DNA of 63,843 nucleotides, the filler included, from Reclinomonas americana ATCC 50394 (lineage: Eukaryota), in NCBI GenBank assembly GCA_048213135.1. It is 6 parts of 5 records of this genome, joined end to end, with 100 filler letters (N's around TTAATTAATTAA, not from the genome) between each part and the next. Parts side by side here need not be neighbours in the genome. Positions count along the whole stretch, not along the records: positions 44,681 to 52,844 come from PS015436.1; 5 more parts are not named here. One strand, given 5' to 3'. The position numbers were made by a program, and so were the translations under genes. Shown here piece by piece: positions 44,681-50,600 of this stretch (position 1 is its first letter; every line of letters begins with the position of its first letter). The notes under the pieces are model-generated. The model worked only from the letters and a program-made list of their open reading frames with translations, ran no database searches and was not told the DNA's origin.

Positions 44681-47600
44681 GGGGGCAGGTGCTGCAAAGG
44701 GCATCATCAAGGCGCGATCAGCCAACATCTTCTTTCGCTCGATCTCCGCGGCGATAGCTGCTGTGCGTTTGCGAATGTCCTCCTCGAGCTGACGCTTGCG
44801 CTCGCGTCGCGATTCGTTGCGCAAACGCTTGGCGATGCTCTCGGCGTCTTGGAACTCGGTAGTCTTGGCACGCTCCAACTCGGCGCCGACCAGCCACGTC
44901 TCCGACTCGGTGTGCTCGGTGGTGAACGGCGACAGAAGCGTCGGCATTGCACGGTCCCTGTCCGCCTTCTTGTCGCCGGGACTGCAGAAAGACCATGCGA
45001 GTGAGCGACAACAAACAACGGACTGTGCAAGTAGCAGTACGCAACTTGTGAAGAATCTTGAACATGCCGGTTCCCAGCGGCACCGGCGTACCCATGATGA
45101 TGCACTCTGACACACCGTCCATGTGATCGCAGCGCGTGTGCGCCGCCGCATCGAACAAGTGGTCCACTGTCTTCTCGAACGAGGCGAGCATCAGCACCGA
45201 ATCCTTCATCTTTTGCACGCCGAAACGCGTAATGCCGAGGATCTCGCCCTTGAAGGTCATGGTGTCGGCCAGCAGCTGAATGTGTCGACTGTCGATGTTC
45301 ATGCCGTGCGACTTCATCGTATACTGGATCTCGTCCACAATCGTCTTGCGGGCCGCCTCAATGCCGAGCACTTTTTCCACCTGCGATGCGCCAGCGACAT
45401 GATATCAGCAGCTGCACATTAAACAAGAACGGCATCGCATCCCAGTACCTCCATAATGTGGTTGCTTCGCGTCTTGCGGGCCACCACGCCGGGCGTGCCC
45501 ATCACTTGCAGCAACTTGGTGCCCTCGGCCAAAATCTGGTGCTCCTTGCCCTTGACTGCATCCTCAGCCTTGACGCTAATGACGGCGCGACTGACTGTGT
45601 CAATGCCGGCGACCACAATCTTGGAGATGGCGTTCTTGATGGTCTGCAGCTGGTAGTACATGTGCGCGCGGTCCTGCATCGGCGTCATGATGCGCAACTT
45701 GTACTCGCTGACAGCTTGCACGTGCTGTCACAGGAGACCGCGCGACGTAAGCCACACTGCTGCAATATAACACCAAAACCCCCGCCGCTTGCTGTCGCTC
45801 ACCTTGTCGCGCAGCTTCAACTTGGGCGCCTTGATGATTGCCGCTCGCACCTGCTCGGCTGAAATGCTCAGCTGCAGATCCTGAATGGTCTTCTCCGCCA
45901 GGCGCACAGAGAGGTAGCAGCTCCCGGGCGAGTAAACCTCCTTGATGTACTCGCACACCTCGCCGAGGGTGGTGCGCTCAATGCGCGCCTTGACCAAACG
46001 CGCACTCTGCTCCGACCACGGGTTCTCCAGCGTGGCGGTGATGATGGGAGTGTTAATCTTTTGCGAGGCATTGATGATCTCCTTGATGCGCGGCACACCG
46101 AGCGTGACGTCTGACACCCGCGCAGGACTGTCAGCGAAATTCTCCGCAAGGCCAGAAAGCAACTGACGCAACTCATGGAGGCGACGCCGGCAAAGTGGAA
46201 TGTCTTCAGAGTCATTTGCGTGCCTGGCTCACCGATCGACTGCCCGGCCAGTGCACCAATGGCCTGACCCGGTTGCACGTGTGCATCGCGGCACTTGGTG
46301 ACGCACAGTCGGCAAAACTCCTCCAGCTGGTTGCGCGTGATGCCAAAGGCCTTGTTGACCACACCAGTGGCCAAGTTGAAATCTGCCATGCGCAAGTGTG
46401 AGAGCAATCACCACCAATAGCTGCTTTTTGTGCGACAAGGGCCACCTTGGCGGGTGCGGATGCGATCGCCTGCATGAAAATGTGAAAGTGAGTATGAGTG
46501 CACGCACGCTTTCCATCGTGACACCGCCACCACACACGCAACTTGGTCGGCGAGCAGTGAGGGGCGCAGCAACTGAGACACAGAGAACATAAATGCGTAA
46601 GGAATCTCGTGCAGCACAGATATGCGCCGCGTCGGCAGTGACACGAACCGTCTGTGGTTGTGGATGCGAGCAGAATCTGATCGCGCAGCGCTCGGTAGCC
46701 TGTGATGACAAGTTTCAGAGGGGGAACAACTGCAACAAGACAATCGTCGACATTACCTTGCTCAGCTGCAGTGGAGTCTTCAACACACAAAGAGCGCATT
46801 TTAGCAAGCACGACACAAAGTGTCACGACGGTCATGCATGCACTCACCGGCCATGGCTTGGCGAATGACTGATGGTCGCGGAGAAAAAACACAGCGATGA
46901 TGAGACAATTGATCATTACCCTGCACACTCCTTGTGCAACAAGAACACACACCGGCAGTCATGCGCTCGCCTGCCAAGCACATGAGTGAGTGAATGAGTG
47001 TCGACAAGATGCAACAAGCGCAGATGGACTCACCCGCTAATCTCGCCTCCTTGACTCCAACAACCTCTGCACAGATAGGTGCACGCAATGAGATGCCAAG
47101 CGCAGCTCAAGCTCCGTGTTGATCCTCACTGACCTCGGACACCCACGGGCGGTGGAAGCAGGAAGGGTGGTGCTGCAGACAAAGTGAGACATTTGACGTA
47201 ACGCGAGACGTGACACGCCAACGCGCACCATCGAGGAGAGGCTCGACATCTATGCACAAATGGAGAAATGCGAATCGTCCAGTTAGCGAATGCGTGCGTG
47301 CTTTTGGAGAGGCAACGGTGCGGCTGGCACATACCCTTCATGGCGAGCACGGCGGCCTCCACGGCGGCATCAGCGGCTGCGACGTGTCAACGTGAGCATC
47401 TACAGGCATATGCACACACAAGAGAGGACACAAGCGGGAACCTTCCACAGCAGCCGTCGCCACTGTTCAACAAAGGCGACATGAGTCTCAAAATGAGAGA
47501 TGTGTGCACCCAAACCAACAATGAACTAACCGCGCTCTGCATCGCTCGTTGCTGTGTGATGAGACGCCGTGCGACGTAAGAAACACGGACAACACGAACA

Positions 47601-50600
47601 AGTGATGAGCATGCAATGACAACACACACCGGCATTTGCGTCTTCGTCGCCTGTGCACCGCGACAGTGTGCATAAGCATTGGTGCCGAGAAACCGCGTGA
47701 TGGGACTGCAGACACTCACCTTCCGCAAAGTACGTGCGTCGCTCAATGTTGTTTGTCGCCTTTCGTGCCTCTCGGCTCGCTGTAGATGCCGCAATATGAG
47801 CACCCGAACGAGAAATACACAAATCTACTTACGTCAACACGAACCAAGGAGAGCGCTTCGAGCACCTGCGACAACAAAGCATACGTGTCAGTAACAGGCA
47901 GCATACGTAGAATCACTGGCGCAAGCGAGAAAAGTGCGTACTACTGACGGCATTTAGTGCGGCTGACATGTGCACGACACAAACGCACATGATGAGCAGC
48001 AGGACGCAAGCAATAGAGAGAGGGCGCACAAAACCTTGAGCACAGCGCTTGGCGGCCTCACTCACTCGCTCCGCTGCCGGGTGGTTGCATGTGAGTGAAC
48101 AGGCACAACACGACGGAACGCAAGAGAACACACCTGGATTGAGTGGCTTCAACTTTTTGCGTTCCAGCATGGTCAGCACCGCCGTTGCAGCATCTGCAAG
48201 GCCACCAGGGAGTGTAAGAAGCACAGATATATCACTGGCACCGTGTGTCGACACTCACCATGCTTGATCGGTGGTGCGTCTGCCACAACGAAAACAAACA
48301 CACAAGTCAACACAACGCCAAATAAACGCAAACAACACCGTGGAAAACACCCAACTCCTGACGACGTCGCAAGCTGCCCAGACAATGCGCAAGCGAGTGA
48401 GAGATTGCCATAAGTGCATCAAACAAAGAGAAATAGTGCATGTACACACACACACACACCTTCGTGACACCGTGCAGCGGCTGTCCATGATAAGAGATGA
48501 GAGAGACTGCCGTCAGATCACACTTTTCCAACACACCAAACAATTCGTGGCGACGCACCACCAGTTGCTTTTTCAGAATCTGCAGCAGCGCGCACTGTGA
48601 GCGACTCAGTGCGACAGAGACAAGCGAGACAAAGCGCACGCAACATTTTACAGTACTGGCGCCGTCACCTGCAGGCGGAACGATCGTTCGGCATAGTAAG
48701 CTTACGTGGCGTGATATGACACGATCCGTTGAACACAAGTAACGCAACGGAGAGCACGCTGACTCGCTGTGAACCACGTTGGTGTGGCCAGGCAGCGCCG
48801 CAAGCCCAACGCTACTCGCTCGTCGCCGAGATTCCTGGCCTCTTTCAGGACGTATTCCACCATCTGAGAGGCGCGACAAAGCATGAGGCATGCACTCGGA
48901 CTGGCGGTGCTGCTGCGATCGACGCAACTGACTGCGCAAATGACTTGGGGCACCACGCCTTGGCGTCGTCGCTGCTCAGGTAGCCAATCACATCCTCCTT
49001 CATCTGCCACGGCAGGAGGTACACGTCCGTGCGAGGCAGGCGCTGTACGCACACGAAACAAACAGATTAGGGGGTCATGCGCAACACGAGCACACACAGA
49101 AACACAGATGTGCTCGCTGACCTTGCACTTGACGAGCACACGATCAAAGTTGATCGGCTTGCCCTCCTTGGCTTCCATGAATTGCGGGTCAAGACCGTCG
49201 TCACCGTACGTGAACTGCACCACACCGTGCGTCGAGTTGCGCGCCGTTTTGTCGTAGTGCACGTGCAGGTCTTCCAGCGCCTTCATCAGACGACGCTGCA
49301 TGTAGCCCGTCTCGGCCGTCTTGACAGCTGCGCGGCATCAACGTGTGAGCAGAGCCAGCCTAAGAGGAGGGAACGAGAACGGAAGTGAGGATGGCACACA
49401 CACCAGTGTCGACAAGGCCCTCACGACCGGTGATGGTGTGGAAGAAGAACTCGGTGGGTGTGAGGCCGGAGAAGAACGAATTGGCCACGAATCCCTTTGC
49501 CGGTGGTTCCTTGGAGCGCTCCGGGAAGTGCGGCAAGGTGCGGTTGACGAACCCGTTGGGAATTCGCGTGCCATTGACTGTTTGCTGACCGACACAGGCA
49601 ACCATTTGACTGATGTTGATCGGTGAGCCCTTGGAGCCACACAACGACATGATTAGTGGTGCGTTGTCCGGATCCAACTCGTTCAGGCACATCTGTGGCG
49701 GCTGGTGGGTCATCGAATTGTACCACAGAGGGGCACACGAGCACGTACGTACCTTGCCCGCGTCCTCACGAATCACCGACAGGAGACCGTTCAACTTGGT
49801 CTCCAACGACTGCTCCAAATCACAGCCCGGCTGCAACTCCAGCTTGCCCTCCTTCCAGTCGGTAATCAACTTGCTGGCCTCTCGGTATCCATCTGACACC
49901 AACTTGGCCTTCTTGGACTGCACAATGGGCGACGGCGTGACATCGCTGATGCCGATCGAGAAACCGCGGTTGGTGATCCAGCGAGCCGACAAGCGAGCCA
50001 GACGGCCCATACATTCGGCGGCGTAGGCAGCCGAGTAATCGCGAATGAGTGTGTAGAACACGGAGTTCTTGGAGCCGCCACCAAGCACACCTGANNNNNN
50101 NNNNNNNNNNNNNNNNNNNNNNNNNNNNNNNNNNNNNNNNNNNNNNNNNNNNNNNNNNNNNNNNNNNNNNNNNNNNNNNNNNNNNNNNNNNNNNNNNNNN
50201 NNNNNNNNNNNNNNNNNNNNNNNNNNNNNNNNNNNNNNNNNNNNNNNNNNNNNNNNNNNNNNNNNNNNNNNNNNNNNNNNNNNNNNNNNNNNNNNNNNNN
50301 NNNNNNNNNNNNNNNNNNNNNNNNNNNNNNGTTGGCGCTGTTGGCGCTGTTTTCCTTGCCGGCTCTCTCGCTCACTCGTCGTGCTGGCAGGCGCGAGTGT
50401 TGCCACATCGAACGTTCCGCTTCAACGAGTGCTGCTGCTCGCCGTACAATGCCGATTTTGATGGCGACGAGATGAACATGCACATTCCGCAGACCGAGGA
50501 GGCGCGCACAGAGGCGTTTCACTTGATGGGAGTTGCGGTGTTTTTGCCTGTGTTGCACATGTGTGTGGATCGTGTCGCTCACTGTCCGGCTCGTTTGCAG

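Follow-up and report, generated by a model that had tools for sequence, protein, structure and literature searches.

A run of symmetric micro-exons in the RNA polymerase III largest-subunit gene of Reclinomonas americana

The gene for RPC1, the largest subunit of RNA polymerase III (Pol III), in Reclinomonas americana ATCC 50394 contains a stretch of 2.4 kb, in the region encoding the foot of the enzyme, that reads not as one long intron but as a run of short spliceosomal introns. All positions given here count along the window, which is the whole 63,843-nucleotide stretch of DNA that was analysed. The array occupies 46383..48763 on the minus strand, and its architecture of 24 short introns and 23 symmetric micro-exons is established at the level of sequence. 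The array introns come with their own GT donor, CTNAY motif and, mostly, CAG acceptor; with such signals at every intron, the spliceosome of a short-intron organism should excise each one alone. Splicing would then join 669 nt in frame into the RPC1 mRNA, and the product would be an RPC1 that gains 223 residues, rich in alanine and patterned in heptads, in a variable surface loop of the foot, just upstream of the helix into the trigger loop. We put the probability of constitutive splicing to this product at about 0.6, a figure held there because codon usage in the array is atypical, the reading being one from sequence alone.

Architecture of the array

Read on the minus strand, the span 48668-46446 is made of short purine- and GC-rich pieces, each with CAG before it and GT after it, and of T/G-rich spacers between them. 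A dynamic programme restricted to phase-1 introns parses it into 24 GT-AG introns and 23 exons, whose 669 nt form 223 codons without a stop. Phase 1 holds for 24 of 24 introns. The micro-exons range from 18 to 60 nt, 11 of the 23 being exactly 21 nt, and the introns are 56-95 nt long (median 69.5). All 23 micro-exons have lengths divisible by three, compared with 9 of the 24 introns; indels thus appear to have been free in introns and excluded from exons, which is the signature of selection on the frame. A preliminary description of this DNA had placed a 223-residue insert at 46446..48668, and these bounds proved exact, 48668 being the first base of micro-exon 1 and 46446 the last of micro-exon 23. 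The peptide it read is the same as ours except at residue 1, which depends on the donor chosen for the ordinary exon before the array.

Much of the pattern reappears when the reading frame is withheld. A frame-blind model was built from donor and acceptor matrices and first-order intron and exon composition, and trained on the 11 introns and 12 exons of the gene outside the array. These 11 homology-confirmed introns, recognised from gap-free high-scoring junctions or read directly in the sequence, are the sole basis of the splice model. Applied to 48863-46300, it returned 22 introns, and 18 of the 21 internal exons were divisible by three (binomial P = 1.1e-6), where dinucleotide shuffles (n = 200) gave a fraction of 0.338. 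The total score was 188.6 against 110.9 ± 10.3 in the shuffles (maximum 139.1; z ~7.6), and 22 introns were predicted on the minus strand against 4 on the plus strand. For each of the three departures from divisibility, a nearby AG or a missed intron restores the frame. A stop-free chain says little by itself, because some parse that preserves an open reading frame (ORF) was allowed in 142 of 150 shuffles. Those parses scored 98.5 ± 11.5 (maximum 137.8), against 182.9 observed.

Over the whole window and both strands, the array was the only close-spaced cluster of predicted introns with a bias towards exon lengths divisible by three (13/14), the others being at chance level. Clusters of 6-7 short predicted introns also lie at 9292-10268 (plus strand) and 6330-5600 (minus strand), where only 1/6 and 2/5 lengths are divisible by three; both are probably untranslated or false predictions.

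The array introns resemble the confirmed introns of the same gene in composition, length, site scores and a branch-like motif. Base composition is close (A.15 and T.33 in the array, A.12 and T.30 in the confirmed set), as is length, the confirmed introns measuring 56-79 nt with a median of 68. Mean donor and acceptor scores are 4.2 and 3.2 in the array, compared with 2.4 and 2.9 for the confirmed introns (leave-one-out) and 0.39 and -0.87 for decoy sites in exons. The acceptors comprise 22 CAG, one TAG and one AAG. A branch-like CTNAY motif stands 8-45 nt from the 3′ end in 21/24 array introns and 9/11 confirmed introns; shuffles gave 6.5 ± 2.2 (maximum 12) and reverse complements 1/24. The motif was not a trained feature, and the 14-nt acceptor matrix overlaps some of its positions. 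By their GT-AG ends (24/24), motif, length and composition, then, the array introns are predicted to be spliceosomal introns of the GT-AG type.

In the order of transcription, the predicted introns are 48763-48669, 48644-48580, 48558-48481, 48459-48374, 48355-48280, 48258-48194, 48133-48074, 48034-47963, 47941-47866, 47844-47780, 47719-47651, 47629-47552, 47530-47463, 47441-47377, 47334-47250, 47228-47173, 47133-47067, 47033-46971, 46952-46869, 46847-46778, 46756-46700, 46648-46573, 46542-46470 and 46445-46383. The micro-exons between them, likewise on the minus strand, begin with three found by the phase-1 parse, namely exon 1 (48645..48668, 24 nt), exon 2 (48559..48579, 21 nt) and exon 3 (48460..48480, 21 nt). 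Both the phase-1 and the frame-blind parse then give exon 4 (48356..48373, 18 nt), exon 5 (48259..48279, 21 nt) and exon 6 (48134..48193, 60 nt). For exon 7 (48035..48073, 39 nt; phase-1 parse) the frame-blind parse takes an AG 5 nt further on. The two parses again coincide for exon 8 (47942..47962, 21 nt), exon 9 (47845..47865, 21 nt), exon 10 (47720..47779, 60 nt), exon 11 (47630..47650, 21 nt), exon 12 (47531..47551, 21 nt), exon 13 (47442..47462, 21 nt), exon 14, which spans two heptads (47335..47376, 42 nt), exon 15 (47229..47249, 21 nt), the Pro-rich exon 16 (47134..47172, 39 nt) and exon 17 (47034..47066, 33 nt). Exon 18 (46953..46970, 18 nt) comes from the phase-1 parse, and an equal-scoring parse ends it 2 nt later. 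Exon 19 (46848..46868, 21 nt), exon 20 (46757..46777, 21 nt) and exon 21 (46649..46699, 51 nt) are in both parses, the last with an alternative acceptor at 46677 that would shorten it to 28 nt. Exon 22 (46543..46572, 30 nt) and exon 23 (46446..46469, 24 nt) are from the phase-1 parse.

The longest unspliced in-frame piece of the insert is 19 residues. Two of the introns, 48133-48074 (60 nt) and 48034-47963 (72 nt), are multiples of three and free of in-frame stops. With micro-exons 6-8 they make up one open frame of 113 residues (47916-48254, minus strand), and retention of either intron keeps the frame. Recursive-splicing exons, which would start with GT and so rebuild a 5′ splice site once the upstream intron is removed, were considered and rejected, as only 2 of the 23 micro-exons start with GT.

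Coding character and heptad register

In base composition the micro-exons match the confirmed exons, with A.23 and T.16 against A.23 and T.20. Their interiors show a strong three-base periodicity in which first positions are G-rich and T-poor (chi2 43.9; 5000 shuffles, mean 6.1, maximum 24.0). In the chosen frame the joined chain has no stop, compared with 8 in each of the other two, and the same frame has the best codon log-likelihood of the three. The 223 residues include 50 A, 22 R, 18 V, 17 E, 17 L and 12 P, a composition that fits the earlier wording of helices joined by Pro-rich linkers. The third-position G+C of long stop-to-stop ORFs across the window was tried as a yardstick and set aside as uninformative, GC-rich DNA yielding many spurious ORFs.

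Counted from the start of each exon, residues fall into a heptad register. At position 5, 15 of 31 residues are Ala (p = 0.0003) and 24 of 31 are A, V, L, I or M (p = 0.0013; both by permutation), and positions 1 and 2 are likewise Ala-rich. Part of the Ala excess at position 1 stems from the splice site, the base ahead of the donor being a G. When exon boundaries are ignored, the heptad statistic drops from 25.8 and 21.5 to 9.4 and 8.5; each exon thus appears to restart the heptad, with the 4-3 spacing of small or hydrophobic residues seen in amphipathic helices.

Uniform phase (24/24), quantised exon lengths (11/23 exons of 21 nt) and a heptad register locked to exon starts are marks of exon amplification. 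Because of these three features, the most likely origin of the array is that an exon of one heptad (21 nt) and its intron were repeatedly amplified in tandem as a pair. The copies would later have diverged, and occasional intron loss would have fused neighbours into the exons of 42 and ~60 nt.

Position in the enzyme and competing readings

The host gene is RPC1, and the array interrupts the segment between the bridge-helix/YGDDG region and the trigger-loop helix, so the preliminary description was right to place the insert in the Pol III foot. On the 5′ side of the array (all on the minus strand), exon a (49122..49327), between confirmed introns 49403-49328 and 49121-49043, encodes the bridge helix and YGDDG motif. 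It is followed by foot exon b (48929..49042), which was read from the sequence as in-frame and stop-free with a third-position G+C of 84%, and by foot exon c (48764..48863), the last ordinary exon, which ends at the phase-1 donor 48763. On the 3′ side, alignment to structure homologues shows that the first ordinary exon (46173..46382) encodes the helix into the trigger loop and the start of that loop. It aligns to human RPC1 1005-1061 and yeast C160 1056-1117, and is followed by a confirmed phase-1 intron, 46172-46111. The insert would therefore sit between the last foot helix and the helix into the trigger loop.

The distance from YGDDG to GxAxG is 133 residues without the array and 356 with it. 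Both motifs are present in 64 of the 235 retrieved homologues, where the spacing runs from 81 to 323 with a median of 135. The insert is thus an addition to a foot of ordinary length, as first proposed, and it is also optional in frame as a whole, since skipping all of it leaves the 133 residues in frame and stop-free. Archaeal subunit A'' aligns to exon 46173..46382 from residue 32, which puts the natural archaeal subunit split only a few tens of residues upstream; the insertion site appears to be a surface region tolerant of discontinuity.

No retrieved homologue has this insert, the closest named one, from Seculamonas, included, in keeping with the earlier view that it is lineage-specific. 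The RPC1 of Seculamonas ecuadoriensis (P0001) has an extra Ala/Pro-rich segment of its own, of ~40 residues, earlier in the foot and directly after the YGDDG helix; this may be either a true insert or an intron that was kept in that annotation.

In the foot alignment, the array falls in a variable loop where P0067, P0151, P0042, P0131, P0192 and P0134 hold low-complexity inserts. These sequences, with P0133 beside P0131, are mostly metagenome or transcriptome proteins, and their inserts are likewise Ala-, Pro- and charge-rich, with spacings up to 323. The present insert differs from them in being the longest seen (356), unalignable, heptad-patterned rather than acidic or basic, and encoded by 23 micro-exons. 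As a protein insert it is of an ordinary kind, and the unusual point is the encoding, in 23 symmetric micro-exons in heptad register.

The RPC1 foot is described as differing between yeast and human, and the Pol II foot as binding regulators (PMC7747717). In human Pol I, RPA1 is described as having a built-in foot domain, ‘dock II’, which is HMG-box-like and proposed as a docking platform (PMC9438803). The likeness to the present case is that of a lineage-specific module inside the foot of a largest polymerase subunit. Dock II, as presented there, differs in being part of another polymerase and in having an HMG-like fold, seen in cryo-EM density and backed by binding assays (PMC9438803). The docking role that the preliminary description gave to the insert is speculative, with dock II as its precedent. 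In function the insert may be a flexible helical surface appendage, tolerated by the enzyme rather than needed for catalysis. Inclusion and translation of all the micro-exons, the amplification origin and any function are things that we infer from the sequence.

Several observations weigh against constitutive inclusion of the array, chief among them its codon usage. Third positions are A.21 and T.22 in the array but A.07 and T.14 in the rest of the gene (A+T 43% versus 21%), where third-position G+C is about 78%. Interior third-position G+C is 59% in the array, compared with 84% and 75% in the two non-conserved exons that flank it. The log-likelihood comes to -0.10 per codon, compared with +0.39 for the reference scored on itself. 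Within the sequence, it is this atypical usage that speaks most strongly against ordinary translation of long standing, and the pattern would fit young, weakly constrained or untranslated sequence. The periodicity control on introns was not clean either (chi2 16.6, p = 0.006). DNA similarity between units, by which an exon-amplification array may be recognised, is at shuffle level; TRF on the array found only three trivial short repeats, none with the unit period, and a repeat search of the array turned up just three direct matches of two copies each, plus a single weak inverted pair. The canonical foot length is reached exactly by the protein without the array. Protein searches with two flanking conserved exons had best identities of 87% and 71%, and none of the proteins returned came from the species itself or from a sister species.

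The parse itself leaves some latitude, which counts on the same side. Exon c has two possible phase-1 end donors, the model-preferred 48763 and one ~15 nt downstream, a choice that changes only insert residue 1. The unrestricted frame-aware optimum scores 182.9, the same as the phase-1 parse, and differs from it only at 46970-46649, where donor 46950 and acceptor 46677 give three phase-0 introns and a 28-nt exon with the frame still open. The same four exons in that interval can thus be given two different stop-free readings.

In two alternatives the array is used only in part or not at all. The introns may be real and the micro-exons variably included, giving RPC1 isoforms with foot loops of differing length. 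Because every exon is phase 1-1, any subset could be skipped in frame, and 24/24 phase-1 introns and 23/23 exons divisible by three exceed the needs of a constitutive gene. Elsewhere in the RPC1 gene, phase 1 applies to no more than 2 of the 11 confirmed introns. Complete skipping would yield a protein of canonical length, and the acceptors at 48481, 48074, 47463, 46869 and 46470 are weak, with scores near or below 0. Uniform phase is explained equally well by descent from one amplified unit, however, and a single-copy housekeeping enzyme has no obvious need for variants; variable inclusion is the main rival reading, if a rather unlikely one. It is also improbable, and somewhat more so, that the array is non-productive, being removed whole or included in part to give minor or unstable products, with its units as young or decaying pseudo-exons kept harmless by symmetry and lack of stops, and unused. 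A third-position composition between intron and exon values, the canonical foot length without the array and the ease with which shuffles yield an ORF-preserving parse (142/150) all suit such a view. Set against it are the full splice signals of every unit, as good as those of confirmed introns, and the length of the 2.38-kb intron that it implies, an outlier beside 11 confirmed introns of 56-79 nt. Divisibility by three confined to exons, three-base periodicity and heptad register would also be hard to keep without translation.

Other explanations dispense with exon amplification. Mobile introns (introner-like elements) might have entered a continuous Ala-rich heptad-repeat exon, in each repeat at the same point, an event that would account for the very high intron density and regular spacing. 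Beyond composition, however, the array introns show no detectable relation to one another or to the confirmed set (mean local score of array-intron pairs 15.2, shuffles 13.2; the maximum, 24, lies inside the shuffle range). Their boundaries carry no repeats resembling target-site duplications, observed and permuted pairings being the same, and no copies occur elsewhere within the window. An introner or transposon-derived intron family was rejected on these three grounds, and an intron burst seems very unlikely. A chance pattern, a nested gene, a mobile element or an RNA gene within one long intron might be entertained, as spurious ORFs are numerous on both strands of DNA this rich in GC. Yet the frame-blind, cluster-scan, heptad, CTNAY, divisibility and periodicity statistics all speak against it, as do the counts of predicted introns, 4 on the plus strand and 22 on the minus strand. 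A clear match to a known mobile or nested gene would have refuted the preliminary description, but the DNA gave no hit to a known family, be it of proteins or RNAs, and showed neither a nested gene nor a mobile element. Pfam searches of 17 stop-to-stop read-through ORFs from both strands of the array gave none above noise (best E = 0.047 and 0.099, far below curated cut-offs), Rfam gave 0 matches at E <= 1 in the array region, and DNA similar to that region occurs nowhere else in the window. The Pfam and Rfam nulls led to the rejection of a nested gene or RNA gene in the array, and this whole group of explanations is scarcely credible.

Host gene, comparisons and significance

The part of the RPC1 gene with homologue matches extends over 45045..52803 on the minus strand, with the array inside it. 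A tblastn search with P0001 gave collinear minus-strand matches from 52803 to 45045, except for one inverted piece. The gene is collinear with Rpb1-type domains, including the ten-residue active-site motif, the bridge helix and the trigger loop, and its full-length homologues carry PF04997, PF00623, PF04983, PF05000 and PF04998. Among the matches listed, the named top homologues are RPC1. In the PDB, human and yeast RPC1 match best (E 3.5e-17 and 9e-17), with RPB1 and RPA1 behind them. As a protein query, the conserved C-terminal exon found RPC1 proteins only, with P0001 best at 87% identity and the other listed matches at or below 77%; the second flanking exon is 65% identical to P0001, and there fungi and plants supply proteins with scores just as high. 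On these matches the organism looks jakobid-like, though only tentatively in view of the second exon. The gene has ~1,600 codons, its homologues ~1,400 residues, and its other exons measure 100-440 nt. The region is eukaryotic in type, with short GT-AG introns, unlike the genes of Andalucia godoyi, which are described as mostly intron-free (PMC7050145).

The inverted piece lies at 50331-51050, between N runs at 50095-50330 and 51051-51663. It is on the plus strand, with its flanks on the minus strand, and carries the exons of the ten-residue active-site motif and the next ~190 residues. The simplest explanation for the inversion is a mistake in scaffolding or orientation, or else masking. Elsewhere in the window, 19063-19162, 44581-44680, 52845-52944, 58102-58201 and 62023-62122 show an identical pattern of two 44-base N runs with 12 readable bases between them, a layout more suggestive of a recurring masked element or a withheld repeat than of normal gaps in the assembly. 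Long open frames very rich in E, R, K, A and Q occur at 41023-41763 (minus strand) and 39950-40441 (plus strand); they have a coiled-coil-like, trichohyalin-like look and border N runs located upstream of the 3′ end of RPC1.

The nearest parallels to the array are found in other kinds of gene. Micro-exon genes (MEGs) of Schistosoma are described as containing runs of very small symmetrical exons, multiples of three in length, that can be skipped without a frameshift (PMC4350168, PMC10526429). Their coding region consists mostly of micro-exons, their introns reach 5 kb, their products are secreted, and they are reported as restricted to platyhelminths (PMC4350168, PMC10526429). The array is MEG-like in that 23/23 exons are multiples of three and 18-60 nt long. 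It is unlike a MEG in being a 223-codon cassette in a housekeeping gene of ~1,600 codons rather than most of a coding region, in having introns of 56-95 nt rather than long ones, and in its host, a nuclear polymerase subunit. It also recalls a second system, the fibrillar collagen genes, in which a repeat protein was built by amplification of exons in 54-bp units. As in those genes, the array pairs each exon with a single structural repeat, keeps one intron phase throughout and has exons of quantised length. The array differs from collagen in its unit of 21 nt (one heptad), its phase 1, its insertion within an enzyme and the lack of any DNA similarity still detectable between units. Searches of an open-access library brought up no account of an array like this, whether in a polymerase gene or in a protist.

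A bolder reading is that the array is a MEG-like cassette of amplified one-heptad micro-exons, lodged in an essential housekeeping gene of a free-living protist and used combinatorially, which would produce a family of Pol III isoforms differing in the length of a helical foot appendage. We consider this doubtful. If true, it would make the array the first of this kind outside flatworms and a live example of introns and coding repeats created together.

Surface loops of polymerases often carry inserts peculiar to one lineage, and these seldom tell much; it is the encoding that stands out here. Twenty-four consecutive phase-1 introns, mostly 21 nt apart, are unusual beside the 100-440 nt of the gene's other exons. 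Automated annotation will probably take the array for a single long intron and report a canonical RPC1, so similar arrays in protists may be systematically missed. If the micro-exons are expressed, the array would offer a compact natural case for the joint multiplication of introns and repeats, and for the recognition of very short exons in an intron-definition organism. It would likewise bear on the occurrence of symmetric micro-exon cassettes outside the secreted-protein genes of flatworms.

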